Shown: positions 2,273 to 34,655 of the stretch, one piece after another
Numbering within the stretch: the first letter of the stretch is position 1
Layout of the letters: every line of letters begins with the position of its first letter
DNA from: Campylobacteraceae bacterium
GTDB lineage: Bacteria > Campylobacterota > Campylobacteria > Campylobacterales > Sulfurovaceae
Direction: 5' to 3'
DNA length: 36,676 bases
Assembly: GCA_027023145.1 (NCBI GenBank)
Contig: JALVWV010000196.1
Coordinates: forward strand, 1-36,676
Notes under the pieces: generated by a model
Seen by the model: only the letters and a program-made list of their open reading frames with translations
Database searches by the model: none
What the model was told of the DNA's origin: nothing
Position numbers and translations under genes: made by a program

Positions 2273-5200
2273 TCAGGGTGTCGGATTCCAGTCGATCATA
2301 TCGTGGGTACCGCTTTCGGTACCGTCGGTGATCCAGGCATGGGCTTCGGTTTCGTTGATAAAGGCCGGGAAAAGAACGGTATGGTTGGCTGTGGCAGGGC
2401 GTGTTCCCCATCCCAATGAACCGTCGGTACCGGGATAAATATCTTTGATCATGTGGGTTCCGGCAGCCGTGCCGTCGCTGATCCACGGTTCGTAGCCATG
2501 TATACTGTCATCGGCACCAAAATAGAGATGCCCCTCCCAGGCAAAGAATCCATCAGGCCAGGAACCATCTGCTCCTAAAACAATGTCTTTGACCATAGTG
2601 GTGCCCGATTCGCTCCCGTCGCTTTTCCATAACTCTTTTCCGTGTGTATCGTCATTGGCAGCAAAATAGAGCGTATCACCCATTGCCGTGAGATGATCCG
2701 GATAGGAAGCGCCGGTGCCGCTGCGAATATCTTTGACCATGGTGGTACCCGCTTCGCTCCCGTCGCTTTTCCACAACTCGTGTCCATGGGCACTGTCCAT
2801 AGCCGTGAAATAGAGTGCATTGTCGGTGACCATCAGATTGTCCGGATATGAGCTAGAAGCTCCGTTTTGGATATCTTTGAAGAGTCGGGTACCGGATTCG
2901 GTGCCGTCACTGACCCAGAGCTCTTCGCCGTGTGTGCCGTCGTCGGCTACAAAATAGATTTTGTCCTGATAGACTCTCAGCAAATCGCCGTTTTGCCAGA
3001 AAGAGCTCTGCGATCCGGATAAAATATCTTTGACCATGTGGGTGCCCGCTTCGGTACCGTCACTCACCCAGAGCTCTTCACCGTGGCTGCCGTCATCGGC
3101 ACTAAAATAGAGTTTGCCGTAGTAGGGTACCAGTATGTGATTTGCCCAGTGGGATCCGAAGCCTCCATCAATGCCACTACGGATATCTTTGACCATGTGG
3201 GTGCCCGCTTCGGTGCCGTCACTGACCCAAAGTTCGTTCCCATGAATACCGTCATTGGCGATAAAGTAGCAGTGACCATTCAATGCCGTGAGTTTTTGGG
3301 GGTTTGAGCTTTCGTAGCCGCTTCGGATATCTTTGACCATGTGGGTGCCTGCTTCGGTGCCGTCACTTGTCCAGAGTTCGCGTCCCGAGATGCCGTCATC
3401 GGCGTTGAAGTAGTAACGGTCGGTGATCTTGAGGATATCTCTGGCCATGTCGGATAAATAGAACCGGTGGCGGGATGAGCCGGTTCCTTCACTGAGTCGG
3501 GCCTGGTCGGTGCCGGATGCGCTGCCGTCGGTTGTCCACAGTTGCCGTCCGTCTTCGTGATTGTTGGCTCCAAAATAGAGTCTGCCTCCCCGTTCGATGA
3601 GCCGGTCGATCTGGGCATCCTGTACATCGGGTGCAATCTCACGGACGATTTGGGTCAGGGCACTGGCACCGTATGATTGGTAGAGTTCTTCCCCGTGAGC
3701 ATCGTCACTGGCGGCAAAATAGAGTACATTACTGTACACATGCAGGGCATGGGGATAGGATCCATCGGCACCTGGACGGATATCCTCAACAAGATCGGCA
3801 TTGCCGACGGTGCCGTTGGATTGCCATACTTCTTTTCCACGTGTTCCATCATTAGCTATAAAATAAAGCATACTGCTTCCCAGGGCGACGAGATCGGATG
3901 GATATGAACTTCCGGAGCCTGCTTTGATATCGGCGACCATCACCGTACCGGCGGATGTGCCGTCGCTTTTCCAAAGCTCCACTCCATGTGTGCCGTCATC
4001 GGCAGCGAAATAGATCGCATTGCCCATGACGGTCAGATGCTCAGGCCGGGAGCCTGCAGAACCGGGATGAATATATTTGACGCCATAAGTGCCGCCGGGC
4101 GTCCCGTTACTGCGCCAGAGTTCACTGCCGTTGATGCCGTCATCGGCGGTAAAATAGAGTACATTGTTCATGACGGTCAGTTCACTGGGATATGAACCGT
4201 TGGAGCCAGAGGGATCGATGTCATAAACCATTTGTGTATTGACACCGGATCCATCGGTTTTCCACAGTTCGCATCCATGGGTGCCGTCATCAGCCGAAAA
4301 ATAGAGCCAGCCGTTCATCGGTGTCAGGTGCTCTGGATAGGATCCTTCGGTTCCAGGGTTGATAATGGTGACAATTGACATTACCGTGCCGTCCCATCGA
4401 AACAATTCATTACCAACAGTGGTGTTGCTGGCTGAGAAGAAGAGGATGCCATTGGCCACGGTCATCTCATCGATCCAACTGTTGCCGTCGCCGGTTTCGA
4501 TCTCATGGACGAGATGAGTTCCGCTCTCGGTACCGTCGCTGACCCAGAGCTCCTGTCCGTGGGTGCCGTCGTTGGCGACGAAGTAGAGTTTGCCGTTGTA
4601 CTCGGTCATCAGTTTGATGGCTGATCCGGATGTACCGGGGTGGATGTCCTTGATCATGCAGGTTCCGGCTCCGGTTCCGTCGGTTTTCCAGAGTTCTTCT
4701 CCATGGACATTGTCGGATGCGGCAAAATAGAGCACCGTACCGATCGTGAGCCTTGATCTCCTCGCACTGTTGTCGTAGGGTAGGGCGTCGTAACCGTTGA
4801 GGTTGATGTCCTTGAGGAGACGGGTATGGGATTGGGTGCCGTCGGTGAGCCATGGCTCGACACCGTGATCCGCAGCGTATTTGAAAAAGAGTGTCCACTG
4901 CCGGATGTGCAGCGTCACATCCCGTGCGATTGTGTGGTTGCCGTCGCTGACGTGCACGGTAAAGGCGTAATCGGTTTGATCCTTGTACATGGGAGAGGTA
5001 TCGAACGTCACTTTTCCTCCGGAATCGATGCTGAGTTTACCACTGTCGGTGCCGCTGAGTGTGTAGGTGAGGGTATCCCCGTCCTCATCGGTCGCATGGA
5101 GTGTAATGGCATCGGTTTTCCCCTCATCAATGGTCTTTTCATGCACATCGCTGTCAAAGACCGGTGCGTGGAGATTGGTGGTGTTGGTGTCCGTTGGAGG

Positions 5201-5287
5201 TTTTGTTTTTCCTCCGCACCCTGTGACGTTTGCCATCCCTGCTATCAGCAGTATTGCCATGCTGCACTTTTTGATGATGTTTTTCAT
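2273..5287 (-). CDS. large surface lipoprotein: lipobox, one cadherin-like domain, then about 18 ELWxxDGT repeats (beta-propeller-type)
   Basis: 1004-aa ORF. Signal peptide and lipobox (LIAGMANVTGCGG). Cadherin-like segment (ATDEDGDTLTYTLSGTDSGKLSIDSGGKVTF). Recurrent G.ELW.SDGT..GT units spaced about 45 aa apart. Confidence 0.85.
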   Translation of the reverse strand: MKNIIKKCSMAILLIAGMANVTGCGGKTKPPTDTNTTNLHAPVFDSDVHEKTIDEGKTDAITLHATDEDGDTLTYTLSGTDSGKLSIDSGGKVTFDTSPMYKDQTDYAFTVHVSDGNHTIARDVTLHIRQWTLFFKYAADHGVEPWLTDGTQSHTRLLKDINLNGYDALPYDNSARRSRLTIGTVLYFAASDNVHGEELWKTDGTGAGTCMIKDIHPGTSGSAIKLMTEYNGKLYFVANDGTHGQELWVSDGTESGTHLVHEIETGDGNSWIDEMTVANGILFFSASNTTVGNELFRWDGTVMSIVTIINPGTEGSYPEHLTPMNGWLYFSADDGTHGCELWKTDGSGVNTQMVYDIDPSGSNGSYPSELTVMNNVLYFTADDGINGSELWRSNGTPGGTYGVKYIHPGSAGSRPEHLTVMGNAIYFAADDGTHGVELWKSDGTSAGTVMVADIKAGSGSSYPSDLVALGSSMLYFIANDGTRGKEVWQSNGTVGNADLVEDIRPGADGSYPHALHVYSNVLYFAASDDAHGEELYQSYGASALTQIVREIAPDVQDAQIDRLIERGGRLYFGANNHEDGRQLWTTDGSASGTDQARLSEGTGSSRHRFYLSDMARDILKITDRYYFNADDGISGRELWTSDGTEAGTHMVKDIRSGYESSNPQKLTALNGHCYFIANDGIHGNELWVSDGTEAGTHMVKDIRSGIDGGFGSHWANHILVPYYGKLYFSADDGSHGEELWVSDGTEAGTHMVKDILSGSQSSFWQNGDLLRVYQDKIYFVADDGTHGEELWVSDGTESGTRLFKDIQNGASSSYPDNLMVTDNALYFTAMDSAHGHELWKSDGSEAGTTMVKDIRSGTGASYPDHLTAMGDTLYFAANDDTHGKELWKSDGSESGTTMVKDIVLGADGSWPDGFFAWEGHLYFGADDSIHGYEPWISDGTAAGTHMIKDIYPGTDGSLGWGTRPATANHTVLFPAFINETEAHAWITDGTESGTHDMIDWNPTP

Positions 5288-5372
5288 CGTAGTCTCCTTT
5301 TTTCGGGTTTGGTATCAAACCTTTTTCCATACTATACTCTCCCATTGTGACGCGAGAGTGACGTTTGGAAAA

Positions 5373-5407
5373 AGTGAGAAGTGAGAGGTGAGAAGTGAGA
5401 AGTGAAA
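5373..5407 (+). repeat. tandem heptamer array AGTGAGA x5
   Basis: Units read directly: agtgaga agtgaga ggtgaga agtgaga agtgaaa, followed by ttgg. Confidence 0.9.
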
Positions 5408-5420
5408 TTGGATGGTGGGT

Positions 5421-5497
5421 GGGGACGCGACTTCAGTCGCGTAGTTGGTTGATAGTGGATGGTGGATGGCGAGAAGGGGCTGGGACTTCAGTCCCAC
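5421..5497 (+). repeat. two CTTCAG-core hairpin modules (GGGGACGCGACTTCAGTCGCGT and AAGGGGCTGGGACTTCAGTCCCAC)
   Basis: Stems are at 5425-5442 and 5482-5495. The same modules with the same flanks recur at 6991-7012, 26667-26710, 15465-15485, 21044-21066, 30863-30885 and 34268-34290. Confidence 0.9.
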
Positions 5498-5601
5498 ATA
5501 GAGAAGTAGAGATTGAAGTCCTCGAAATATCGCTATGTCACTATCTCCTCAGACGCCCATCCCCATCGGGGATGGTGGGGATGAAGATAGAAGATGAAAG
5601 G

Positions 5602-6986: not shown

Positions 6987-7012
6987 AAAAGGGGACGCGA
7001 CTTCAGTCGCGT
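6987..7012. repeat. GGGGACGCGACTTCAGTCGCGT hairpin abutting the trpB stop; possible terminator
   Basis: 8-bp stem with TTCA loop at 6995-7012. The trpB stop is at 7013-7015. In the trpB direction, CCCC separates the stem from TTTT, so terminator function is uncertain. Confidence 0.45.
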
Positions 7013-8233
7013 TTATTCAAAATCGAGCATCTCCTTCGCCTGGATCATATCCTTGTCCCCCCGGCCGGAGAGGTTGATGAGGATGGTTTTACCGGAGAGG
7101 GCTTCGTGGGGCATTTTTTTGAGGTATGCCACGGCGTGGGAGCTCTCGAAGGCGGGGATGATTCCCTCGCGTTGGCTGAGCCAGACAAACGCATCGAGGG
7201 CTTCGGTGTCGGTGATGTGATCATACGTGACGATGCGCTCGTCTTTGAGGTAGGCGTGTTCCGGGCCGATGCCGGGGTAGTCGAGTCCGGCACTGATGGA
7301 GTGGGCTTCGAGGATCTGGCCGTCGTCGTCCTGGAGGAGATAACTCATCTGGCCGTGCAGCACGCCCGGTGCTCCTTTGGCGAGGCTTGCACCGTGTTTG
7401 GAATCCAGCCCGAGGCCGCCTGCTTCGATCCCGATGCACTCGACACTCTCGTCTTCGAGGAAGTGGTTGAAGATTCCGATGGCGTTGCTTCCACCGCCGA
7501 TGCAGGCAATCACTGTGTCCGGGAGGGTACCGGCGGCTTCCTGGATCTGGGCGCGGGCTTCCCAGCCGATGATCGACTGGATGTCGCGGATCATCATCGG
7601 GTAGGGGTGAGGGCCGGCGACGGTGCCGATGACGTAGAAGGTATCCCGCGCATGGGTGACCCAGTGGCGAATCGCATCGTTCATGGCGTCCTTGAGGGTA
7701 CGCGATCCCGACTCGACAGCATGGACCTTGGCTCCGAGGAGCTTCATCCGAAAGACATTGAGTTCTTGACGGGCGACGTCTTTGGCACCCATGAAGATCT
7801 CACACTCCAGCCCGAAGAGGGCTGCGACGGTGGCCGTGGCGACCCCGTGCTGCCCCGCACCGGTCTCGGCGATGATCTTTTTCTTGCCCAGACGCTTGGC
7901 GAGGATCGCCTGAGCGACGGTGTGGTTGATCTTGTGTGCTCCGGTGTGGTTGAGGTCTTCGCGCTTGAGGTAGATGCGGGCATCGAGTTCGTCGGAGAGG
8001 TTCTCAGCATAGTAGAGAGGGCTGGGGCGGCCGACGTAATGCTGATAATAATCATGCACCTGCCCCCAGAACTCCGGATCGAAGCGGACTGCTTCGTAGT
8101 CGGCTTTGAGCTGCTCGAGGACAGGCATGAGGGTCTCGGGGACGTAGCGACCGCCGTAGGTGCCAAAATGCCCGAGATCATCAGGATCGTAGGGGGAGGG
8201 TTTGGGGATATAGTATGTGTCGGTTGTGTTCAT
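7013..8233 (-). CDS. trpB: tryptophan synthase beta chain
   Basis: 406-aa ORF with [11 protein letters not shown], the PLP-lysine context [21 protein letters not shown] and GGGSNAIG. Confidence 0.95.
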
Positions 8234-8268: not shown

Positions 8269-8289
8269 AAATTAGAAATTAGAAATGAA
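8269..8289 (+). repeat. tandem heptamers AAATTAG x2 plus AAATGAA
   Basis: Read directly in the trpB/recN divergent intergenic region. Confidence 0.7.
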
Positions 8290-9900: not shown

Positions 9901-11103
9901 TCAATAAAAATACCCCATTGGCAGAGCCACACACTTCTCGTTAATATGTAGCACGTTTTTTCCCATATAAAAGACGATACCCAAAACATCTTTCGATGAT
10001 TTCTTTTGATACTCCACAATATGCCTAAAGTCATCTTTGCTCACTCTGGTTGAAGATTTTACCTCAACAGCTATCATTCTATTTTGACGCTCCAAGATAA
10101 AATCTATCTCTTTTTTATCATTGGTGAGGTAGTGGTAGATTTTGGTATCATCTATAGCAAAACTACAATGTTTGAGCAACTCATTAAAGACAAAAGTTTC
10201 TACCAGTGCCCCTTTATACCGAGAGTTTTCAAATGCTTCTATGGAGTAGATGCCCAAGAAATAACTCATCAGCCCTGTGTCGTTTAGAAATATCTTTGGT
10301 GACTTGACAAACTGCTTTCCGATGTTTTCAAAAAAAGGTCGCAATGTATGGAGCTGAAAAGTCTGCTCCAAAATGACCAGATAGTTTTCACAAGTCTCTA
10401 TTCGTACTCCTACCTCTTTGGCTAGTTTTGATTTATTGAGCAAAGAGGTGCTCCGTGGAGCAATGATATTGACAAAACGATAAAAGCTGTCTATATCTCT
10501 AAACTCCCCCAAATTACGGGCATCACGCTCTATGTAAGTGCTCACATAAGAGGAAAACCAAAGTTTTTTCTCCAGTGGAGTTTTTAAATTTTGCACATCA
10601 GGATAGCCACCCTTTAAGATAGACTCTACCACACTATTGGTCTCTACCTCAGTAGTGCTAAAGTCATGGACAAAGAGTTTATCTACTATGTTTTCATTCG
10701 GTTTTTTCGTCTTCTCTTTTGCGCTCAATGGGTACAAGTCTATCTCTATAATACGACCTGCCAATGTATCCTTGGCCTGTTTCATATCTAAAATATTAGC
10801 AGAGCCTGTCAGCAAAAAATCCCCATTATTTCGTTTTTTATCCACGTATGTTTTGATGGCTTCTAAGAGCTCTGGTACCTTTTGTATCTCATCAATGGTA
10901 GCAGGCTTTGGTAGTGCTTCCACAAATCGTACAGGGTCATCTTTGGCATTAACGCGTGTAGAGACATCATCTAAGACAACATAATTTTTTCGTATCTCCA
11001 TAGCCAATGTCGACTTGCCCACCTGCCGTGCACCTTTGAGCAACACAACAGGAGAAATCTTAAGTGCCGTCTCCAAGATAGGTACAATGCTTCTTTTTAG
11101 CAT
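9901..11103 (-). CDS. AAA+ ATPase of the AAA_14/DUF4143 (COG1373) type with a PD-(D/E)xK-like C-terminal motif
   Basis: The ORF track starts at TTG 11109; I prefer the ATG at 11103 (MLKRSIV...). Walker A GARQVGKST and Walker B-like ATIDEIQ. C-terminal EIDFILE...IAVEVKSS. The gene is visibly AT-rich compared with its neighbours. Confidence 0.75.
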   Translation of the reverse strand: MLKRSIVPILETALKISPVVLLKGARQVGKSTLAMEIRKNYVVLDDVSTRVNAKDDPVRFVEALPKPATIDEIQKVPELLEAIKTYVDKKRNNGDFLLTGSANILDMKQAKDTLAGRIIEIDLYPLSAKEKTKKPNENIVDKLFVHDFSTTEVETNSVVESILKGGYPDVQNLKTPLEKKLWFSSYVSTYIERDARNLGEFRDIDSFYRFVNIIAPRSTSLLNKSKLAKEVGVRIETCENYLVILEQTFQLHTLRPFFENIGKQFVKSPKIFLNDTGLMSYFLGIYSIEAFENSRYKGALVETFVFNELLKHCSFAIDDTKIYHYLTNDKKEIDFILERQNRMIAVEVKSSTRVSKDDFRHIVEYQKKSSKDVLGIVFYMGKNVLHINEKCVALPMGYFY

Positions 11104-11224
11104 AATCAATGCCTTATTGGATTTGTATTTTGTAAATTATACTATTATAATAGTTAAAATTATGCTATCTTGGCAATATTTTTAGAGATTTTGTGGATTT
11201 TCTGTTTATGTATGTTTTTTCCCT

Positions 11225-11250
11225 CGTTCCGCATCTCCTGATGCGGAATG
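11225..11250 (-). repeat. AGGA-loop hairpin module (minus strand: GGTATG-CATTCCGCATC-AGGA-GATGCGGAACG-AG)
   Basis: 11-bp stem including one G-T pair, with a 4-nt loop. The flanks match copies at 16041-16074 and 26755-26788. It sits at the junction of the AT-rich ATPase gene and higA. Confidence 0.85.
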
Positions 11251-11319
11251 CATACCAAACTGCTGACAACCCAAAACCTCCTGGAGATACGAAAACACGA
11301 AGCAAGGAATCCTGCCGTT

Positions 11320-11622
11320 TTATGCCACCTCTTCAGCAGCGTGAATCGTCTCGAAAACGCTCCGTTTCTTTTTGGCAACGTTGTAGAGGTCGTAGCTGTT
11401 CTGGAGGTTGAGCCAGAGTTCGGGGGAAGTGCCGAAATATTTTGAGAGCCTCAGTGCCATTTCGACGGTGATGCCTCTTTTTTGATTGACCAGTTCATTG
11501 ATCGCGCGAAACGATGTGTGAAGTGCATCTGCCAGTTTGGTCTGCGTGATACCCATGGGGATCAAAAACTCCTCTTTGAGGATTTCTCCGGGATGGGTGG
11601 GTGCTCGCTGTAACTCTATCAT
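11320..11622 (-). CDS. higA: HigA-family antitoxin (XRE helix-turn-helix)
   Basis: 100-aa ORF with HPGEILKEEFL, ITQTKLADAL, ALRLSKYFGTSPELWLNLQ. AGGAGAG RBS. Located 17 nt downstream of higB. Confidence 0.9.
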   Translation of the reverse strand: MIELQRAPTHPGEILKEEFLIPMGITQTKLADALHTSFRAINELVNQKRGITVEMALRLSKYFGTSPELWLNLQNSYDLYNVAKKKRSVFETIHAAEEVA

Positions 11623-11639
11623 GGTCTCTCCTTCTACTT

Positions 11640-11921
11640 TCAGTGATAATCCACTATCTTGACATCATAAGCATGGTTGTCTTCAAATCTGAAAATCACC
11701 CTGAATTGCTTGTTGACCCGTATGGAATAGTATCCTTTCAAGTCGCCTTTCAGCCCCTCGAGTCTGTTGGCCGGAGGGATTTTCAGGTCATTCAGATCAC
11801 GGGCATTGTTCAAATAGTCCAATTTTCGCAATGCTACTTTTTGGATATCCGGAGGCAGTGTCCTGCTCCTCCCTGTGGTATAAAATGCTTTACACGCTTT
11901 GTCCTGAAAACTTTTGATCAT
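11640..11921 (-). CDS. higB: HigB toxin (RelE/ParE superfamily, plasmid maintenance system killer type)
   Basis: 93-aa ORF with IKSFQDKA.KAFY, LKIPPANRLEGLKGDLKGYYSIRVNKQFRVIFRFE, and ending VDYH. Toxin-first order is typical of higBA. Confidence 0.9.
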   Translation of the reverse strand: MIKSFQDKACKAFYTTGRSRTLPPDIQKVALRKLDYLNNARDLNDLKIPPANRLEGLKGDLKGYYSIRVNKQFRVIFRFEDNHAYDVKIVDYH

Positions 11922-11923
11922 AT

Positions 11924-11944
11924 AACACTATAACATATAGTGTT
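11924..11944. promoter_or_regulatory. perfect 9-bp inverted repeat AACACTATA-ACA-TATAGTGTT overlapping the putative higB -10; candidate HigBA operator
   Basis: Read directly, 3 nt upstream of the higB ATG. Type II TA operons are commonly autoregulated through palindromic operators. Confidence 0.5.
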
Positions 11945-15393: not shown

Positions 15394-15428
15394 GAATTAG
15401 GAATTAGGAATGAGGAATTAGGAATGTT
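15394..15428 (+). repeat. tandem heptamer array GAATTAG x5, starting at the first base after the hisB stop
   Basis: gaattag gaattag gaatgag gaattag gaatgtt, then ggtatgcg. Confidence 0.9.
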
Positions 15429-15453: not shown

Positions 15454-15556
15454 CAATTAAATAGGGGGTGGGACTTCAGTCCCACAAACATTGTTCGCGA
15501 TGTATTGTGCAGTGTGCGCCATTGTATATTGTTGCAAACCCCATACAGGAGAACTC

Positions 15557-20130: not shown

Positions 20131-21007
<877 letters not shown>

Positions 21008-21035: not shown

Positions 21036-21089
21036 ATATGAAAAGGGGTTGGGACTTCAGTCCCATAAACATCGCTTGCGATGTATCGT

Positions 21090-21111
21090 GTAGGGTGCGC
21101 AATTGCGCACC
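21090..21111 (+). repeat. GTAG-headed palindrome GTAGGGTGCGCAATTGCGCACC (REP-like)
   Basis: Perfect 18-bp palindrome GGTGCGCAATTGCGCACC preceded by GTAG. Confidence 0.9.
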
Positions 21112-21127
21112 TTCCAACGGTATTTCT

Positions 21128-21205
21128 CCGGAAGCGGAGACTTCAGTCCCGCCAAAAGGTCAAACAACACAGCAACCTTAGGGTGAGGCTGAAGCCTTCA
21201 CTTCC
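21128..21205 (-). mobile_element. 78-bp TIR-bounded MITE/REPIN-like element, copy 1 (inverted relative to copies 2 and 3)
   Basis: The reverse complement aligns along its full length with 26806-26884 and 32810-32887. The arms GGAAGTGAAGGCTTCAGCCTCACC and CCGGAAGCGGAGACTTCAGTCCCGCC are inverted repeats of each other. Confidence 0.7.
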
Positions 21206-21228
21206 AGATAAATCGCGTTGCGATTTTT

Positions 21229-21249
21229 GTGTGCTGTTGCACACCCTAC
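21229..21249 (-). repeat. GTAG-headed palindrome on the minus strand (GTAGGGTGTGCAACAGCACAC)
   Basis: Reverse complement of gtgtgctgttgcacaccctac. The adjacent AATCGCGTTGCGATT hairpin (21211-21225) matches the module order seen at 30909-30947 and 34501-34539. Confidence 0.85.
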
Positions 21250-21263
21250 ACGGGTATGACTCA

Positions 21264-21438
21264 ATGAATAATGAAAAATGAAAAATGAATAATGAATAAT
21301 GAAAGATGAAAGATGAAAGATGAAAGATGAAAGATGAAAAATGAAAGATGAAAAATGAAAGATGAAAAATGAAAGATGAAAAATGAAAAATGAATAATGA
21401 ATAATGAAAGATGAAAGATGAAAGATGAAAAATGAATG
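21264..21438 (+). repeat. 25-unit tandem heptamer array ATGAAAR/ATGAATA; the last unit contains the TrmH-family start codon
   Basis: I counted 24 complete units over 21264-21431 (168 bp): ata aaa aaa ata ata aag x5 aaa aag aaa aag aaa aag aaa aaa ata ata aag x3 aaa. Unit 25 is ATGAATG at 21432. Confidence 0.95.
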
Positions 21439-22197: not shown

Positions 22198-22620
22198 GTG
22201 GTTTACCTCTCGCTCTTTATCACTGCCTTCATCTCGGCAACCCTTTGGCCGATGGGGAGTGAAGCCGTCCTCCTCTACGATATCACGCAGGGACACCCCA
22301 TCCTAGCTCTCTGGGCAGTAGCTACCGCCGGCAACACCCTCGGAGCGACACTCAACTACTGGATGGGTCTGGGTGGTGAAGCGATGCTCGAAGAGCGCGG
22401 CCGCATCCGCCCTGGAGCCCTCCGCCCTATCCACCGCTATTTCGAGCGTTATGGGGCGGCGACCCTGCTGCTGAGCTGGCTGCCGATTGTCGGGGATCTC
22501 TTTACCTTCGTAGCCGGGATTGTGCGGTATCCTTTTTGGCGGTTTGTCGTGTGGGTGCTAGTGGCCAAAGGAGGACGGTATGCGGTGTTGGTGTGGGGGG
22601 TGTTGCGGGTTGCGGGTTAG
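22198..22620 (+). CDS. YqaA/DedA-related (SNARE-associated domain) membrane protein
   Basis: 140-aa ORF with a GTG start, containing FISATLWPMGSEAVL and ATAGNTLGATLNYWMG. The last 7 codons lie in a heptamer array. Confidence 0.7.
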   Translation: MVYLSLFITAFISATLWPMGSEAVLLYDITQGHPILALWAVATAGNTLGATLNYWMGLGGEAMLEERGRIRPGALRPIHRYFERYGAATLLLSWLPIVGDLFTFVAGIVRYPFWRFVVWVLVAKGGRYAVLVWGVLRVAG

Positions 22621-22641
22621 GGGTTACGTGTTACGTTTTGG
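22600..22641 (+). repeat. heptamer array GTGTTGC GGGTTGC GGGTTAG GGGTTAC GTGTTAC GTTTTGG spanning the stop of the yqaA-like gene
   Basis: Read directly. The stop codon TAG (22618-22620) lies inside unit 3. Confidence 0.9.
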
Positions 22642-22675: not shown

Positions 22676-22794
22676 GTAGGGTGTTGTGCCCTCACAACAC
22701 CGAAATGGCCATACGGTGCAATGGGTTCCATGATTGTATCGGAATGTTTTTTGATTGTCGTATCAATTGGTGTTGTCGGGGGACAACACCCTAT
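22676..22794. repeat. inverted doublet of GTAG-headed palindromes (GTAGGGTGTTGTGCCCTCACAACACC at 22676-22701 on the plus strand; ATAGGGTGTTGTCCCCCGACAACACC at 22769-22794 on the minus strand)
   Basis: 9-bp stems GGTGTTGTG/CACAACACC and GGTGTTGTC/GACAACACC, arranged head to head with a 67-bp spacer. Confidence 0.85.
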
Positions 22795-22811: not shown

Positions 22812-23723
22812 TTATTTTTTGAGGCTTTTGTAAATCCGCTCCATCCCCGGCACCTCCACCCCCAACCGTTCCCCTTCATGGACGATATACCCGCACAACG
22901 CTTCAACCTCGGCGGGTTTGCCCTGCTCGATGTCAAGCTGGAGGGAGGTTTTGGCTCCAGGGGCGACTTTGGCGGCCTGGGTGAGGGCGGCGGTGATATG
23001 TTCTTCGGTCAGGGGGATATCTTTGACCTGCGCGACGGCTGTAATTTCCCGCATGAGGGTTTCCAGTTCTTCAGCATGTTCGGTAGTGATGGCATTCATG
23101 GGTTTGTTATGGTAAGCTGTCAGGGCGGCGAAGGCGGAGATGAAGAGGTATTTTTTCCAATTATCAAGTGTGATGGAGTCGCTGTAGTGGTGGCGGAGTC
23201 CGGCGGTGTCGAAGAGCTCGGTGAGGGCGTGGACGATGGCAGGGTCGACTGCCTGTTTGCTCCCCCAAACGAGGCGGAAGACTTTGCCCCGCTTGCGGAC
23301 CGTGCCGGGGGCGGTGATGTTGGAGAGGATGTAGATGTGGCCGTCGAGGATGGTGGAGTTGGGGTAGTATCGGCGGATGGTATCGGCATGTCCGACGCCG
23401 TTAAGGAGGGGGAGGAGGATGGTGTTGGAGGTGATGGTGGGTTTCAGCTGCTTCAGCGTCGCTTCCAGGGAGGTGGCTTTGACACTGAGGATGATGAGGT
23501 CAAAGGTGCCCAGCTCTCCGGGATTGTCGGTTGCCTGAGCTGGATGGACGGTGTAGTGCTCGTTATCTTCTTCGATCCTCAGACCCTTTTCCCGGATCGC
23601 TTCAAGATGCTTACCTCGTGCCAGCAGAGAGACGTGGGCATCGGTGTGGCGGATCAGCTGAGCGCCGACGTAGCTTCCTACTCCGCCGCTGCCGGCGATG
23701 AGGATTGTGGTGATGGGATTCAT
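22812..23723 (-). CDS. panE: 2-dehydropantoate 2-reductase
   Basis: The ORF track starts at 23807; I prefer ATG 23723 (MNPITTILIAGSGGVGSYVG, a Rossmann GxGxxG at the N-terminus). KTSLQLDIEQGKPAEVEAL is typical of the ApbA C-terminal domain. The ATG lies 1 nt after the stop of the upstream gene. Confidence 0.85.
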   Translation of the reverse strand: MNPITTILIAGSGGVGSYVGAQLIRHTDAHVSLLARGKHLEAIREKGLRIEEDNEHYTVHPAQATDNPGELGTFDLIILSVKATSLEATLKQLKPTITSNTILLPLLNGVGHADTIRRYYPNSTILDGHIYILSNITAPGTVRKRGKVFRLVWGSKQAVDPAIVHALTELFDTAGLRHHYSDSITLDNWKKYLFISAFAALTAYHNKPMNAITTEHAEELETLMREITAVAQVKDIPLTEEHITAALTQAAKVAPGAKTSLQLDIEQGKPAEVEALCGYIVHEGERLGVEVPGMERIYKSLKK

Positions 23724-24201: not shown

Positions 24202-24220
24202 TCGGGTGTCCTTTTTGCGT

Positions 24221-24248
24221 GTTAAGTGCTACGTGTTACGTGTTGCGT
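24221..24248 (+). repeat. heptamer array GTTAAGT GCTACGT GTTACGT GTTGCGT followed by TTTTGG
   Basis: Read directly, upstream of the DUF302 lipoprotein gene. Confidence 0.8.
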
Positions 24249-24251
24249 TTT

Positions 24252-24299
24252 GGAGTTGGGACTTCAAGCCTTATTAAACGGGACTAAAGTCCCTACTCC
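24252..24299. repeat. extended stem-loop GGAGTTGGGACT...AGTCCCTACTCC enclosing a GGGACTAAAGTCCC hairpin
   Basis: 12-bp outer stem with one mismatch. It is related to GGAGTAGGGACTTCAGTCCC at 31514-31533. Confidence 0.7.
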
Positions 24300-24332: not shown

Positions 24333-24367
24333 AACTCCTAATTCCTAATTCCTCACTCCTAATTCAC
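24333..24367 (-). repeat. heptamer array on the minus strand (GTGAATT AGGAGTG AGGAATT AGGAATT AGGAGTT), starting 2 nt after the ychF stop
   Basis: Reverse complement of aactcct aattcct aattcct cactcct aattcac. Confidence 0.9.
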
Positions 24368-26351: not shown

Positions 26352-26666
26352 ATGCGTTTTTTTACCTGGATTATTATGGGGATACTGGGAATAGCGGCTT
26401 TGAGCGGTTGTGCCCCAAAGGGAGAGCAGGTGATGATCCAAAATGCTAAAAGCTCGGATTATGCGACAGGATACGGTGATGGGTGTGAGAGTGGACGAGC
26501 CGACGCGGGGTCTGTGACGTCTATGGCGCAGAAAGATGGGGAAAAATATCAAAACAATTCCCAATACAAAGAGGGGTGGGATACCGGGTTCAGGGAGTGC
26601 AAGTTTCGAGAGCTGCAAGTCTCAAAACTCTCAAAAAGAGACCCCAAAAAACCGGTACGTTTCTAA
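26352..26666 (+). CDS. small lipoprotein, function unknown
   Basis: 104-aa ORF. Lipobox IAALSGCA. Internal GYGDGCESG / YKEGWDTGFRECK motifs. Followed by a hairpin and T-run. Confidence 0.6.
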   Translation: MRFFTWIIMGILGIAALSGCAPKGEQVMIQNAKSSDYATGYGDGCESGRADAGSVTSMAQKDGEKYQNNSQYKEGWDTGFRECKFRELQVSKLSKRDPKKPVRF

Positions 26667-26670
26667 GGGG

Positions 26671-26707
26671 ACGCGACTTCAGTCGCGTTTTGTGGGACTG
26701 AAGTCCC
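26671..26707 (+). terminator. back-to-back hairpins ACGCGACTTCAGTCGCGT-TTTT and GGGACTGAAGTCCC(AGCCCC)-TTTCTT; likely terminator of the small lipoprotein gene
   Basis: The first stem starts 5 nt after TAA 26664-26666 and is followed directly by TTTT. The second is the inverted copy of the GGGGCTGGGACTTCAGTCCCAC module. Confidence 0.6.
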
Positions 26708-26760
26708 AGCCCCTTTCTTCCGACAGGGAACGCACATATTACGTTTGATGCAGTCGTATG

Positions 26761-26805: not shown

Positions 26806-26884
26806 GGAAGTGAAGGCTTCAGCCTCACCTTGAGGTTGCTATGTTATTTGACCTTTTGGGCGGGACTGAAGTCTCCGCTTCCGG
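26806..26884 (+). mobile_element. 78-bp TIR-bounded MITE/REPIN-like element, copy 2
   Basis: Aligns with 32810-32887 and with the reverse complement of 21128-21205. Confidence 0.7.
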
Positions 26885-26898
26885 GAAAATCGGTGGAA

Positions 26899-26918
26899 GG
26901 TGCGCAATTGCACACTAC
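26899..26918 (-). repeat. GTAG-headed palindrome on the minus strand (GTAGTGTGCAATTGCGCACC); its GTAG contains the der stop codon
   Basis: The minus strand reads GAA GAG TAG TGT GCA ATT GCG CAC C. The der stop is at 26915-26917. Confidence 0.85.
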
Positions 26919-30297: not shown

Positions 30298-30774
30298 ATG
30301 AAAACCATCGAAGGAAATTTGAGCGTCGATCGCTCCAAAAAAGTTGCCATCATCAGTGCACGATTCAACCACTTTATCACCGACCGTCTCGTCGAGGGAG
30401 CCAAAGATGCCTACGCCCGCCATGGTGGGCAAGCAGAGGATCTCGATTTGATCCTCGTTCCCGGAGCGTTTGAGATCCCTTTTGCTCTGGACAAGGCGTT
30501 TGCATCCGGTAAGTACGATGCCGTCTGTTGTCTTGGAGCCGTGATCCGGGGGGCGACACCGCATTTTGATTATGTCTCAGCCGAAGCGACCAAAGGGGTA
30601 GCCAATGTCACCCTCAAACATGGCAAGCCTGCTTCGTTTGGTGTCCTCACAGTCGACAGCATTGAGCAAGCCATCGAGCGTGCCGGGACAAAAGCGGGCA
30701 ACAAAGGAGCTGAAGCGATGACGGGATTGATCGAGATGATCAATCTGTATGAGGAATTAGGAGTGAGGAATTAG
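30298..30774 (+). CDS. ribH: 6,7-dimethyl-8-ribityllumazine synthase
   Basis: 158-aa ORF with [43 protein letters not shown]. The last 7 codons and the stop lie in an AGGAATT heptamer array. Confidence 0.95.
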
Positions 30775-30779
30775 GAATT
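30752..30779 (+). repeat. heptamer array AGGAATT AGGAGTG AGGAATT AGGAATT spanning the ribH 3-prime end and stop
   Basis: Read directly. TAG 30772-30774 straddles the junction of units 3 and 4. The array is followed by TTGG. Confidence 0.9.
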
Positions 30780-30810: not shown

Positions 30811-30832
30811 GTAGGGTTGGCTTCAGCCGACC
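30811..30832 (+). repeat. GTAG-headed hairpin GTAGGGTTGGCTTCAGCCGACC
   Basis: 7-bp stem including one G-T pair, with a TTCA loop. A second copy lies at 34411-34432. Confidence 0.85.
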
Positions 30833-30908
30833 AAAAATGGCACGAACGCATAGAGATCAAACAGGGGCTGGGACTTCAGTCCCACAAACATCGTTTGCGA
30901 TGTATCGT

Positions 30909-31001
30909 GTAGGGTGGGCAACAGCACACCAAAATCACATCGTGATTGTCAAAATGTTCCTGTAATTCAATCGTTGGAAGGTGCGCAATTGCGCACCCTA
31001 C
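30909..31001. repeat. inverted doublet of GTAG-headed palindromes (30909-30930 on the plus strand; 30980-31001 on the minus strand) with an internal AATCACATCGTGATT hairpin
   Basis: GTAGGGTGGGCAACAGCACACC and, on the minus strand, GTAGGGTGCGCAATTGCGCACC, with a 49-bp spacer. Confidence 0.85.
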
Positions 31002-31040: not shown

Positions 31041-31433
31041 ATGGCCACACGCCGTCAAGCTCGTACCGCTGTCATCGGTCTGCTCTATGCCTACGATCTG
31101 GGCAATGCTAACATCGCACAATTCAGCGACGACATCCTCGAAGAGGGGAAGATCCGGAACAAACAGCGGGAATTTTCCCAAGGGTTGTTCAGGGGTACCA
31201 TCGAGCATCTTGATGAGATTGATGCTGAAATAACTAAACACCTCAAAGAGTGGGATATGGATGGCATCGGCAAGGTCGAAAAGGCGATCCTGCGTCTGGG
31301 CACGTATGAGATCCTCATCGCCGGTACCGATCGCCCCATCATCATCAACGAAGCAGTCGAGCTGGCCAAAGAGCTTGCCGACGACCGGTCGCCGCAGTTT
31401 ATCAATGGGGTTTTGGATGCGGTTGGGAAATGA
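31041..31433 (+). CDS. nusB: transcription antitermination factor NusB
   Basis: The ORF track starts at 30981 inside repeat DNA; I prefer ATG 31041 (MATRRQARTAVIGLLYAYD), preceded by AAAGGA. Contains ILRLGTYEI and INEAVELAK. Confidence 0.9.
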   Translation: MATRRQARTAVIGLLYAYDLGNANIAQFSDDILEEGKIRNKQREFSQGLFRGTIEHLDEIDAEITKHLKEWDMDGIGKVEKAILRLGTYEILIAGTDRPIIINEAVELAKELADDRSPQFINGVLDAVGK

Positions 31434-31461
31434 GTGGGTAGTGGGTAGTGTGTAGTGGGTA
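31434..31461 (+). repeat. heptamer array GTGGGTA x4, starting at the first base after the nusB stop
   Basis: gtgggta gtgggta gtgtgta gtgggta. Confidence 0.9.
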
Positions 31462-31516
31462 GAAATTTATGGTGTTTGGATTGTTGTGGATCTGGTCGCA
31501 GTTGTACTCATCAGGA

Positions 31517-31553
31517 GTAGGGACTTCAGTCCCGTATGTAGGACTGAAGTCCT
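31517..31553 (+). repeat. twin GTAG-headed hairpins GTAGGGACTTCAGTCCC and GTAGGACTGAAGTCCT
   Basis: Read directly. The cores are in opposite orientation (CTTCAG then CTGAAG). Confidence 0.85.
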
Positions 31554-31607: not shown

Positions 31608-32702
31608 ATGAAAAAAACCGTTAAAAAGAGCTCTACCCGCTACCCGCTACCCGCTACCCGCTTGTCTATAAGCGAAGCGATAGACTTAATCGAACACGCC
31701 GACCTCAAAGAACTCGGACGTATGGCATATGCTCGCAAGCAGGAGCTTCACCCCAAAGGGGTTACCACTTTCGTTGTCGATCGCAACATCAACTACACCA
31801 ATATCTGTTGGGTGGACTGCAAATTCTGTGCGTTTTATACCCATGAGAAAAAAGAAGATGCTTATGTACTGAGCTTTGAGGAGATCGACGCCAAGATCGA
31901 TGAGCTCGTGGCCATCGGTGGGACGCAGATTCTCTTCCAGGGAGGGGTGCATCCCAAGCTGGAGATCGAGTGGTACGAAGATCTGGTGGAGCATATTCAT
32001 CAAAAGTATCCTGAAGTGACCATCCACGGTTTCTCAGCCATAGAGATCGACTATATTGCCCGCCGTTCTCACTTGAGCATTCGTGAAGTGCTCGAACGGC
32101 TCCAAGCCAAAGGACTCAGCTCGATCCCGGGAGCCGGAGCCGAGATCCTTAGCGACCGGGTACGCGATATCATCGCTCCGAACAAACTTGACACGGCTAC
32201 CTGGATCGATGTCCACCGCCAAGCCCACACAATCGGGATGAAATCGACCGCGACGATGATGTACGGCACCGTAGAGACGACCCGGGAGATCGTGGAGCAC
32301 TTCGATCACATCCGCCGCTTACAGGATGAGACGGGCGGGTTTCGGGCGTTTATCATGTGGAGTTACCAAAGCGACAACACCGAACTCAAACGCCAACTCC
32401 CCACTCTGAGCAAAACAAGTTCCAACTATTATCTTCGGTTATTGGCTGTGGCACGTCTCTTCCTTGATAATGTCCCCAATATCCAGAGCTCTTGGGTCAC
32501 TCAGGGAAGCTACATCGGTCAGATGGCACTCCGCTGGGGAGCCAATGACCTCGGCTCGACGATGATGGAAGAAAACGTCGTCTCCGCCGCCGGAGCCCAC
32601 AACCAAATGAATCAGGAAGAGATGATCCGCCTTATTGCTGACATCGGAGAGAAACCGGCTAAGCGTAATACGGCGTATGAGATTTTGGAGAGATATTATT
32701 GA
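31608..32702 (+). CDS. radical SAM enzyme of the futalosine (mqn) menaquinone pathway, MqnC/MqnE (CofH-like) family; C versus E cannot be told apart by eye
   Basis: 364-aa ORF. Cluster motif NICWVDCKFCAF, GGTQILFQGG, TATMMYG, GGFRAFIMWSYQ. Codons 9-18 are encoded by a CTACCCG heptamer array. Confidence 0.85.
   Translation: MKKTVKKSSTRYPLPATRLSISEAIDLIEHADLKELGRMAYARKQELHPKGVTTFVVDRNINYTNICWVDCKFCAFYTHEKKEDAYVLSFEEIDAKIDELVAIGGTQILFQGGVHPKLEIEWYEDLVEHIHQKYPEVTIHGFSAIEIDYIARRSHLSIREVLERLQAKGLSSIPGAGAEILSDRVRDIIAPNKLDTATWIDVHRQAHTIGMKSTATMMYGTVETTREIVEHFDHIRRLQDETGGFRAFIMWSYQSDNTELKRQLPTLSKTSSNYYLRLLAVARLFLDNVPNIQSSWVTQGSYIGQMALRWGANDLGSTMMEENVVSAAGAHNQMNQEEMIRLIADIGEKPAKRNTAYEILERYY
31633..31660 (+). 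repeat. heptamer array CTACCCG x4 inside the 5-prime end of the mqn-family CDS; it is the reverse complement of the GGGTAG-type array at 31434-31461
   Basis: ctacccg x4 read directly; it encodes S-T-R-Y-P-L-P-A-T-R. Confidence 0.9.
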
Positions 32703-32730
32703 AGTAGGAAGTAAGAAGTAGGAAGTAGGA
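32703..32730 (+). repeat. heptamer array AGTAGGA AGTAAGA AGTAGGA AGTAGGA, starting at the first base after the mqn-family stop
   Basis: Read directly; followed by ATTTTGG. Confidence 0.9.
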
Positions 32731-32740
32731 ATTTTGGTAT

Positions 32741-32761: not shown

Positions 32762-32786
32762 GTAGGTGTTGTCCTCTGACAACACC
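32762..32786 (+). repeat. GTAG-headed palindrome GTAGGTGTTGTCCTCTGACAACACC
   Basis: 9-bp stem GGTGTTGTC/GACAACACC with loop CTCT, followed by AAAATCAC as in other copies. Confidence 0.85.
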
Positions 32787-32809
32787 AAAATCACAAATGT
32801 ATTTTATTT

Positions 32810-32887
32810 GGAAGTGGAGGCTTCAGCCCCACCTTGAGGTCACCATGTTATTTGAGTGTTGGGCGGGACTGAAGTCTCCGCTTCCGG
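32810..32887 (+). mobile_element. 78-bp TIR-bounded MITE/REPIN-like element, copy 3
   Basis: Left arm GGAAGTGGAGGCTTCAGCCCCACC. The reverse complement of the right arm is GGAAGCGGAGACTTCAGTCCCGCC (20 of 24 identical). Confidence 0.7.
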
Positions 32888-32962
32888 AAAAGCTCCATCA
32901 AAAGGTGCGCAATTGAGCATTCTGCGGGGAAACAAATATAAAAACCACAAAAAGGAACAACC

Positions 32963-34204
32963 ATGCCAGCCACCCAAACCACCTTTCACCTCCACGGGGT
33001 TGAAATCCCCGTGATTTTTGAAGAGGAGCGGTATCTTCCGATTGTTTCATTGCAGTTGGTGTTTGAAGACAGCGGAGCACTCAGTGATCTCAATCCGGGT
33101 CAAGCGCGGATGACAGCGCGGCTACTGGGAGAAGGATCACGCAAGGCGGGTTCAGCGGCGTTTGCCGAGCGTCTGGAGTCCCGGGCGGTGAGCCTGAGTG
33201 CTCACGCAGGGCGGGAGACGATGGTGATCGAGCTGAGTGCGCTCAAGGAGAACTTCGGGTATGGAGCCGGGATGCTGGCCGAACTGCTGGCAGATCCCAA
33301 CTATTCTCCTGAAGCATTTGAAACCGTTCAGGCAAGCACGCTCGGTAAACTCACCCAGAAACAGAGTGACTACGATTATCTCGCGTCTGTCGGGCTCTCG
33401 CGCCTGCTCTTTGAAGGTACCGGGCTGTCTGAACCGATTGACGGGACGCTTGAGAGTGTGCGAATGATGGATCCGGAGGATTTGGTCTACCAATTCCGCA
33501 CCCATGTGGGCTTGAGCAACCTTACCATTGTCCTCGGAGGGGATCTGAGCTGGGAAGAGGCGCAAACGTATCTTCAGCAGGCGCTCACACCGCTCAAGCA
33601 AACATCCGTCGTCCCCATCGGTCATTTTACGGCGACCGATACCCCCCGGATCGATCGGGCGTTTGTCCAGACAGAACAGGCGTATATCTATTTTGGAGCG
33701 CCGCTGGATGTGGCGTACGATGGCGCAGAGACCCATCTGGCCAAAATCGCCGCGTTTGTGCTGGGCAGCAGCGGTTTTGGAAGCCGCCTCATGGAAGAAG
33801 TCCGGGTCAAGCGGGGACTGGCGTATTCTGCTTATGGGCATTTTGCCCTCAAACGCTCGGTGAGTTACTTCACCGGACATGTCCAGACCAAACTTGAGAG
33901 CGAAGAGGAAGCCATCGAAGTGATTGGCGAAGTGGTCTCCGAGTTTGTCAAGGACGGCATCACCGCCAAAGAGCTCGAAGGAGCCAAAGCCTTCCTCCTT
34001 GGGAGTGAGCCTTTGCGCACCGAGACCCTCTCTCAGCGTCTGGGGCGGGCGTTTGATGAGTATTATGCGCACAAACCTCTGGGTGAGAGTGCCCGTCAGC
34101 TGGAGCAGATCGAAGGGGTGAGCCTCGAGGAGATCAACGCGTTTATCCGGGAGCATGAGGAGATTGAGAAGCTTAGTTTTTATGTGGTAACAAGGGAGAA
34201 TTAG
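32963..34204 (+). CDS. M16 (pitrilysin) family peptidase-like protein lacking the HxxEH zinc motif (probably a non-catalytic subunit)
   Basis: 413-aa ORF with the two-domain M16 layout (R/Y pair region VRVKRGLAYSAYG). The position where HxxEH is expected reads ARMTARLLGEG. Confidence 0.75.
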   Translation: MPATQTTFHLHGVEIPVIFEEERYLPIVSLQLVFEDSGALSDLNPGQARMTARLLGEGSRKAGSAAFAERLESRAVSLSAHAGRETMVIELSALKENFGYGAGMLAELLADPNYSPEAFETVQASTLGKLTQKQSDYDYLASVGLSRLLFEGTGLSEPIDGTLESVRMMDPEDLVYQFRTHVGLSNLTIVLGGDLSWEEAQTYLQQALTPLKQTSVVPIGHFTATDTPRIDRAFVQTEQAYIYFGAPLDVAYDGAETHLAKIAAFVLGSSGFGSRLMEEVRVKRGLAYSAYGHFALKRSVSYFTGHVQTKLESEEEAIEVIGEVVSEFVKDGITAKELEGAKAFLLGSEPLRTETLSQRLGRAFDEYYAHKPLGESARQLEQIEGVSLEEINAFIREHEEIEKLSFYVVTREN

Positions 34205-34226
34205 GAGTTAGGAATTAGGAGTGAGG
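34199..34226 (+). repeat. heptamer array AATTAGG AGTTAGG AATTAGG AGTGAGG spanning the last codon and stop of the M16-like gene
   Basis: Read directly; followed by AATTTTGG. Confidence 0.9.
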
Positions 34227-34237
34227 AATTTTGGTGG

Positions 34238-34258
34238 GCGTTGCTCTGCAACGCTTTT
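34238..34258 (+). terminator. intrinsic terminator-like hairpin GCGTTGC-TCT-GCAACGC plus TTTT
   Basis: Same module; a duplicate lies at 34386-34406 with loop GTA. Confidence 0.65.
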
Positions 34259-34315
34259 ATTTGAAAAAGGGGCTGGGACTTTAGTCCCACAAACATCGCT
34301 TGCGATGTATCGCGT

Positions 34316-34408
34316 AGATTGAGAAGTTGAGTTTTTATGTGGTAACGCGGGAGAATTAGAGGTTAGAAATTAGAAGTTTTGGTGGGCGTTGCGTAGCAAC
34401 GCTTTTAT
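34316..34408 (+). repeat. non-coding duplicate of the M16-like gene tail plus heptamer array plus terminator hairpin (copy of 34161-34260, one heptamer shorter)
   Basis: agattgagaagttgagtttttatgtggtaacgcgggagaattaga... aligns with agattgagaagcttagtttttatgtggtaacaagggagaattagga... The offset is 155 bp. Confidence 0.85.
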
Positions 34409-34410
34409 CT

Positions 34411-34432
34411 GTAGGGTTGGCTTTAGCCGACC
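34411..34432 (+). repeat. GTAG-headed hairpin GTAGGGTTGGCTTTAGCCGACC
   Basis: Copy of 30811-30832 with one loop change. Confidence 0.85.
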
Positions 34433-34500
34433 ATATGGGGGATTTGATACGCTGCGCGTTTGGTTGGACTGAAGTCCAAGCCCCATGGAGAAGGGCTCGC

Positions 34501-34592
34501 GTAGGGTGTGCAATTGCACACCAAAATCGCAACGCGATTGTCAGAATGTCCCGGTAGTGTAACCATTGGAAGGTGCGCAATTGCGCACCTAC
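34501..34592. repeat. inverted doublet of GTAG-headed palindromes (34501-34522 on the plus strand; 34572-34592 on the minus strand) with an internal AATCGCAACGCGATT hairpin
   Basis: GTAGGGTGTGCAATTGCACACC and, on the minus strand, GTAGGTGCGCAATTGCGCACC, with a 49-bp spacer. The architecture matches 30909-31001. Confidence 0.85.
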
Positions 34593-34655
34593 GTGATAAA
34601 ACGTAAAAAAATATGACAATTTGACATATTTTCCGATCCTGTGCCTATCCTTAGC

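Follow-up and report, generated by a model that had tools for sequence, protein, structure and literature searches.

GTAG-headed hairpins of a Nitratifractor-like Sulfurovaceae member as probable REPs of a REP-RAYT system

The locus and its GTAG-headed hairpins

The window examined here, by which we mean the whole analysed stretch of 36,676 nucleotides, is chromosomal DNA of ~52% G+C that carries fabI, a SpoU/TrmH-family methyltransferase gene, panE, ychF, der, mscS, ribH, nusB, and genes for a peptidase and a DEAD-box helicase. The encoded YchF shares 90% identity with the Nitratifractor salsuginis protein, and the other named matches are to Nitratifractor or Sulfurovum; the host of the repeats is a Nitratifractor-like vent bacterium of the Sulfurovaceae. 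A near-identical scaffold (99.97%) is present in the ENA metagenome JOHN19-1 (SAMN10217875). A low-G+C island at 9901-11933 (38-43% against ~52%) contains an AAA_14/DUF4143 ATPase gene and a HigB-like toxin/HTH antitoxin pair and is probably acquired DNA. Positions 2273-5287 (minus strand) encode a 1004-aa protein with ~15 copies of a 144-nt (48-aa) repeat and weak Ig-like and beta-propeller matches.

The window has 17 intergenic regions, and 8 of them together contain thirteen intact GTAG-headed hairpin units and two decayed remnants. Every sequence quoted for such units in a preliminary description of this DNA is present at its position, and the three head-to-head doublets reported there are confirmed, with spacers of 67 nt (22702-22768), 49 nt (30931-30979), and 49 nt (34523-34571). 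The stems are perfect and 8-9 bp long, with loops of 2-4 nt. All of the units are intergenic, and only the one at 26899-26918 touches a gene.

The focal doublet (22676-22794) is located between two convergent genes, those of a VTT-domain protein (ending at 22620) and PanE (ending at 22812). Its left arm (22676-22701, plus strand) reads GTAGGGTGTTGTG-CCCT-CACAACACC, and its right arm (22769-22794, minus strand) has the head ATAG. When the doublet is folded as a single DNA strand, its arms base-pair with each other to give one long hairpin (-29 kcal/mol, z = -4.6). This doublet belongs to a subfamily, F2, of the form GGTGTTGTS-NNNN-SACAACACC. The main family, F1 (GTAGGGTG[Y]GCAA[YW]GC[R]CACC), supplies doublets of 93 nt at 30909-31001 and 92 nt at 34501-34592. 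The former has arms at 30909-30930 (plus; one G.A stem mismatch) and 30980-31001 (minus) and an internal hairpin ATCAC-ATC-GTGAT (z = -4.6); the latter has arms at 34501-34522 (plus) and 34572-34592 (minus) and an internal hairpin ATCGC-AAC-GCGAT (z = -4.4).

Two further doublets were found among units earlier listed as singles. One is a 160-nt long form of F1 at 21090-21249, in which ~70 nt with two extra hairpins stand between the arms (21090-21111, plus; 21229-21249, minus); the same form occurs on metagenome contig L160 with 88.8% identity. The other, at 32762-32925, is a decayed long form, its left arm an intact F2 unit (32762-32786, plus) and its right arm (32904-32925, GGTGCGCAATTGAGCATTCTGC) carrying a broken stem and a mutated head. 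A single F1 unit, GTAGTGTGCAATTGCGCACC, sits on the minus strand at 26899-26918, where der uses the TAG of the GTAG head as its stop codon (26915-26917). The plus-strand sequence GCAGTGTGCGCCATTGTATATT at 15509-15530, which aligns with the units at 21090 and 30909 and is also conserved in a related genome (contig L211, see below), is probably a decayed F1 unit.

A third subfamily, F3 (GGTTGGC-TTC-GCCGACC), is represented by two single plus-strand units. That at 30811-30832, GTAGGGTTGGC-TTC-AGCCGACC, starts 7 nt past a terminator-like hairpin and has a T.G wobble in its stem, folding at -4.9 kcal/mol on the top strand versus -2.4 kcal/mol on the bottom strand. The unit at 34411-34432 is placed in the same way relative to a terminator-like hairpin; it had been equated with the first in sequence as well, but it reads GTAGGGTTGGCTTTAGCCGACC, one loop base apart. 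F2 and F3 are rare and share with F1 only the GTAGGGT...ACC stem base. The diversity of stems had been attributed either to several subfamilies or to compensatory evolution, and each proposal holds in part: GGTGCGCA and GGTGTGCA belong to one family and differ by compensatory change, while GGTGTTGT and GGTTGGC mark separate, much rarer subfamilies. A shared AAAAT tail likewise stands for one doublet arm type but not as a general feature, the other arm ending in TTCCAACGG. Two units at 31517-31553 do not belong to the GTAG class to which they had been assigned. These GGGACTTCAGTCCC units are members of a separate hairpin family with the core GACT-TC-AGTC and the usual head GGGGCT, and the apparent GTAG, there and in a unit at 24296, stems from the head variant GGAGTA.

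The excess of GTAG-headed palindromes over shuffled controls that the REP reading predicts was found. Counting perfect hairpins with a stem of at least 6, a loop of 2-9 and GTAG at the 5' edge gave 12 in the window versus 0.75 +/- 0.82 (maximum 4) in 100 dinucleotide-preserving shuffles; hairpins of every kind numbered 95 versus 63. A 78-kb set comprising the window and the related contigs L210 and L211 was retrieved via proteins and not via the repeat. Within it GTAG heads 21 hairpins, the median for the 256 possible tetranucleotide heads being 2.5, and GTAG and TAGG are the top heads. REP density over the window, L210, and L211 is 2-3 per 10 kb, from which a copy number per genome would be an extrapolation. 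No GTAG unit was flagged in a check for intrinsic terminators, AAAAT or TTCCAA rather than a T run coming next. The hairpins flagged as terminator-like form a separate class, GCGTTGC-NNN-GCAACGC followed by TTTTAT, that lies directly 3' of genes and upstream of the REPs. A search of Rfam returned no family matching the REPs.

Doublet architecture and stem covariation

An identical 22-mer of the repeat was found on 78 metagenome contigs, and 110 F1 copies were gathered from these and the window. Stem positions 9 and 18 form the one pair left free by the retrieval pattern; the other stem positions are uninformative because the pattern fixes them. At this pair, T-A occurs in 73 copies, C-G in 28, G-C in 5, T.G in 3, and G.A in 1, and the intermediate C-A, which the pattern permits, in none. 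The F1 stem is thus maintained by compensatory substitutions, with T-A, C-G, or G-C in 106 of 110 copies.

The proposed excess of inverted pairs is also borne out. Adjoining F1 copies have their GTAG heads facing outward in 21 cases, inward in 4, and are never in tandem; the outward to inward ratio is 10:1 on contigs of at least 44% G+C, among which the window counts, and 11:3 where G+C is lower. Doublet lengths in the lineage of the window have a mode of 92-94 nt, or of 92-95 nt in a stricter set of doublets. Ten doublets of this length, from the window, the related metagenome-assembled genome (MAG) described below, and metagenome contigs, align end to end with a mean identity of 85% and nearly invariant stems. 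F1 doublets are asymmetric, with TTCCAACGG following one arm and AAAATCGCAACGCGAT the other. The latter is itself a small hairpin with compensatory variants (ATCGC/GCGAT versus ATCAC/GTGAT). Single-strand folding of the doublets gives one long hairpin in which the GTAG heads take part, with z-scores of -4.4 to -4.6 on the plus strand and -3.3 to -3.5 on the minus strand.

RAYT genes among the same REPs

As the preliminary description had noted, no RAYT is visible in the window; a tblastn search of it with the RAYT of this lineage gave nothing at E <= 10 and no remnant. RAYT genes flanked by these REPs, which it had suggested looking for, were found on metagenome contigs L149/L208, L159, and L215 and in MAG GCA_054004435.1. 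A comparison of E. coli RayT with six-frame ORFs of the metagenome contigs yielded two (L149 and L159). The L149 ORF, identical to part of L208, is 160 aa long. It matches the NCBIfam model NF047646 (REP-associated tyrosine transposase) with 147.7 bits against a cut-off of 80, falls under the cut-off of the IS200 model (35.7 bits versus 55), and has a Pfam Y1_Tnp match. Against PDB 4ER8 (E. coli TnpAREP), with E = 5e-22, its HLH at residue 58 aligns with HMH at 59 and its Y130 with Y115. These scores place the protein with the RAYTs and not with the IS200 transposases.

On L208 the order is REPIN doublet, RAYT, REP, REPIN doublet, and F1 REPs also stand on both sides of the RAYT on L159, L210, L212, and L213. 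The L159 gene, from a low-G+C organism, is interrupted by a TGA codon. On L215 the sole F1 doublet is ~1.2 kb upstream of the RAYT, and the contig stops at the stop codon of the gene. No RAYT was seen beside any F2 or F3 REP. Their dependence on RAYT is only assumed, because they share the GTAGGGT...ACC stem base.

The link to the organism of the window draws on GCA_054004435.1. Its contig JBPNKZ010000002 (L210) carries, among F1 REPINs, a RAYT 96% identical to the L149 protein. Its contig JBPNKZ010000003 (L211) encodes a YchF that falls in the same 90% cluster as that of the window. The surrounding locus keeps synteny with the window at a DNA identity of 84-92%, and many repeat copies occupy identical sites in the two. 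JOHN19-1 sample SAMN10217877, a sister of the sample with the near-identical scaffold, contains a further RAYT, of the same 90% cluster as the one on L210. From this ~90%-identity relative and the sister sample, we infer that the exact strain of the window also has a RAYT. In addition, contigs of at least 44% G+C have in common with the window GACTTCAGTC hairpins and the terminator-like hairpin, neither of which occurs on the lower-G+C contigs. REPs disrupt metagenome assemblies: the contigs with the RAYT are mostly ~1 kb long, and at one repeat-rich junction the sister scaffold is interrupted by a run of N. Because the repeats break assemblies, RAYTs are easily missed in MAGs.

A motif, TGACAAT(T/A)TGACATA, precedes the start codon by ~45-60 nt in every RAYT gene examined (on L213 with one base changed). 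Its sites are at 34614-34628 of the window, at 156 on L208, 924 on L159, ~9957 on L212, and 2631 on L126, and on L213 and L215. The DEAD-box helicase gene of the window has it upstream too, as does that of the relative L126, which is free of REPs; this suggests a shared promoter or operator. The sequence TGACAATTTGACATA near the REPIN at 34592 was considered as a part of the repeat and rejected, since the same helicase gene has it upstream in L126.

The closest described system is that of Sulfurovum sp. NBC37-1, which is listed among the species with GTAG-REPs, outward-facing dimers predominating (Di Nocera et al. 2013, PMC3733652). Its REP core is identical to the one described here (GTAGGGTGTGCAATTGCACACC), outward-facing doublets flank its RAYT gene (WP_011980781.1) on both sides, TGACAAT(A/T)TGACATA stands upstream of that gene, and both hosts are Sulfurovaceae. 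The two RAYT proteins are 72% identical, and a third, on a contig of 43% G+C, is 71% identical and is also flanked by GTAGGGTGTGCAATTGCACACC. The present lineage differs in genus and in G+C (~52%), in a common C-G stem variant, in unrelated doublet spacer sequences, and in its 160-nt composite forms and subfamilies F2 and F3. The documented pair is thereby extended to a Nitratifractor-like lineage. A REP hairpin that is nearly unchanged while the RAYT has diverged to ~70% identity and host G+C ranges from ~34% to 52% makes this a case of REP-RAYT co-conservation.

More distant systems share individual features. As with the REP/BIME sequences of E. coli and their RayT (TnpAREP, PDB 4ER8; group 2), GTAG lies 5' of a palindrome, and the protein is of ~160 aa, HUH/Y1 in type, with HUH motif and tyrosine aligning. 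E. coli REPs are imperfect palindromes with a bulge needed for activity, and group 3 REPs of S. maltophilia are perfect palindromes (Corneloup et al. 2021, PMC8266576). Unlike those of E. coli, the present stems are perfect and thus like group 3, a likeness taken from REP shape. Inverted REP doublets that fold as one long hairpin recall the REPIN-RAYT system of Pseudomonas (Bertels and Rainey; PMC5581495), although no identical master copies were seen here. The Pseudomonas RAYT is reported to be single-copy, chromosomal, and vertically inherited (PMC5581495). The RAYT here is also chromosomal, the DNA upstream of it matching in part between L210 and L215 (77% over ~550 nt). A Y1 HUH enzyme, subterminal hairpins in single-stranded DNA, and a 5' tetranucleotide guide are shared with IS200/IS605; unlike there, the protein is under the IS200 cut-off and the hairpins are dispersed alone rather than forming element ends. 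CGTC-tagged REPs are described as having a terminal CGTC tag and a CCA tail, with a stem of 8-9 bp that opens with A-T pairs and encloses a 4-5 nt loop (Di Nocera 2013, PMC3733652). This description suits neither the GTAG units nor the GACTTCAGTC hairpins with their GGGG head. Separately, the F1 stem has an exact counterpart in Bradyrhizobium and relatives, where the 18-nt palindrome GGTGCGCAATTGCGCACC is repeated in high copy number (at least 120 blocks matched). Among the matches listed it is flanked there by CTCA or CTAT, never GTAG, and is set in multi-hairpin mosaics.

We take the GTAG hairpins to be REPs, mostly REPINs, of a REP-RAYT system in a Nitratifractor-like member of the Sulfurovaceae, with a probability of roughly 0.87. 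The REP/REPIN reading put forward in the preliminary description gains from the GTAG head, the outward doublets, the compensatory stems, the intergenic position, and the cognate RAYT found outside the window. With the RAYT in the genome of a close relative, the hairpins are therefore a new example of a known system and open no new question on how REPs work. TnpAREP enzymes bind the folded single-stranded REP together with GTAG and cut at a nearby CT or CA (PMC8266576). By analogy, each REP, or a whole doublet, would fold into a hairpin on single-stranded DNA, and the single RAYT (HUH/Y1) of the lineage would bind this hairpin together with its GTAG. The substrate to be bound and cut would be single-stranded GTAGGGTGCGCAATTGCGCACC. 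Cutting at a nearby dinucleotide would proceed through a 5'-phosphotyrosine link, and the enzyme could rejoin the strands, thereby spreading or removing REP copies. In this lineage, copies have built up between genes, often right after terminator-like hairpins or between convergent genes.

Repeat history, alternatives, and other intergenic repeats

The corresponding loci of N. salsuginis (L124) and of MAG GCA_964520575.1 (L126) carry none of these repeats. In L126 the gene order is the same, and junctions of 0-66 nt compare with 170-460 nt in the window. In L211, repeat copies at the same sites are 85-98% identical to those of the window, compared with 77% at third codon positions of neighbouring genes. 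The excess conservation of the repeats is modest, because the remaining intergenic DNA is also 72-95% identical. At the focal site, L211 has the same doublet with its 67-nt spacer (22702-22768) inverted (91% identity when reversed) and the arms and outer flanks in unchanged order, as expected from recombination between self-palindromic arms. The hairpin at 21229-21249 remains only by half, replaced by array DNA, and the module at 30854-30905 is missing. The der gene ends in GAG TAG both in the window and in the REP-free L126, so this GTAG is native; in the window the REP stem comes directly next, and L211 has a different GTAG palindrome, GTAGGGGTACCCCTAC, at the same stop codon. The site is either a hot spot or one at which a native GTAG was taken over as a REP head.

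Clean excision footprints were considered and rejected, the L211 differences being messy (half a hairpin giving way to array DNA in one case, repeat modules differing at a shared junction in another). Comparison of the window with L211 showed no clean REP insertion or excision, and comparison with its 99.97% sister scaffold showed no strain-level gain or loss of REPs. The sister scaffold is uninformative on REP mobility, because it differs only in 15 heptamer-array units and a scaffolding gap of N at the NusB-CofH junction. Non-orthologous REPIN pairs are never identical (80-96% identity). Overall, the REPIN population looks old and maintained rather than recently expanded.

The most serious alternative, which we nevertheless consider improbable, is that the hairpins are host elements under selection, serving mRNA 3' end protection, transcription insulation, or nucleoid-protein binding, with a historical or incidental link to RAYT. 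The 85-98% identity of same-site copies against 77% at third codon positions points this way, as do the fixed short distance of F2 and F3 units past terminator-like hairpins and the retention of the F3 T.G wobble, which can pair only on the strand that runs in the direction of the upstream gene. Part of this weight is lost to the similar conservation of other intergenic DNA. Such a function is moreover compatible with the RAYT reading, and alone it gives no account of the GTAG head, the outward doublets, or the same REPs around RAYT across several genera. Less probable still is an origin as ordinary MITEs moved by a DDE-type transposase, or as leftover IS200/IS605 ends. The inverted ends and a MITE-typical size of 92-160 nt would suit it, but the ends show no evident target-site duplications, each arm is itself a palindrome headed by GTAG, the window showed no DDE transposase, and the sole transposase-like gene beside the repeats scores as a RAYT and not as IS200. 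Chance, through base composition and intrinsic terminators, can draw on the general surplus of hairpins in the window; it is already refuted by the 12 GTAG-headed hairpins against 0.75 expected, by the lack of a T run after any of them, and by the same 22-mer on 78 metagenome contigs. The REP-RAYT reading is accordingly preferred.

The window holds a second palindromic family, with the core [GT][GC]GACT-TC-AGTC[CG][CA], a GGGG(C/A/T)(T/C) head, compensatory stem variants, and outward-facing doublets. Members are at 5419-5499, 6989-7014, 15467-15488, 21047-21068, 21134-21155, 24280-24296, 26665-26715, 26860-26881, 30867-30888, 31517-31553, 32863-32884, 34272-34293, and 34465-34484. In ~200 kb of same-lineage DNA there are 47 oriented copies, 29 with a GGGG head and 27 with GGGG followed by C/A/T and T/C, an abundance equal to that of the REPs in this lineage. 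The family does not occur in 157 kb of lower-G+C metagenome contigs bearing the same GTAG REP, in a 20-kb locus of Sulfurovum NBC37-1, or in the loci of N. salsuginis and L126. No enzyme was found in association with it, and it fits neither the GTAG nor the CGTC class. The GTAG REPINs could conceivably be one layer of a set of lineage-specific intergenic modules in which the GGGG-headed family is a new REP-like class, mobilised either by some other enzyme or by the RAYT if it also accepts a substrate without GTAG; we hold this extension to be rather doubtful.

Sixteen tandem arrays of 7-nt units (GAATTAG, GAGTGAG, GAAGTAG, GTGGGTA, GTTACGT, and AATGAAA x25 among them) were also observed, at positions including 5372-5469, 8269-8286, 15394-15425, 20980-21004, 21263-21436, 22602-22635, 24218-24248, 24336-24365, 30752-30779, 31433-31462, 31633-31662, 32701-32731, 34201-34227, and 34354-34375. 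Most begin at or just past a stop codon, in the direction of the upstream gene, and are usually followed by TTTTGG and then the terminator-like hairpin; ribH ends inside one. All three frames are closed in the arrays because the units carry TAG or TGA. At the fabI-trmH junction L211 has a different unit (TGGTGGA), and arrays occur in the REP-free L126 as well. The nearest described case is that of the TAACTGA arrays of Beggiatoaceae and cyanobacteria (PMC4679880). Lastly, 34161-34400 contains a tandem duplication of ~155 nt. The duplicated segment takes in the 3' end of the M16 peptidase gene (45 nt) together with a heptamer array and the terminator-like hairpin, and its second copy starts exactly 3' of a GTAG (34312-34315), where a REP stem normally comes next.
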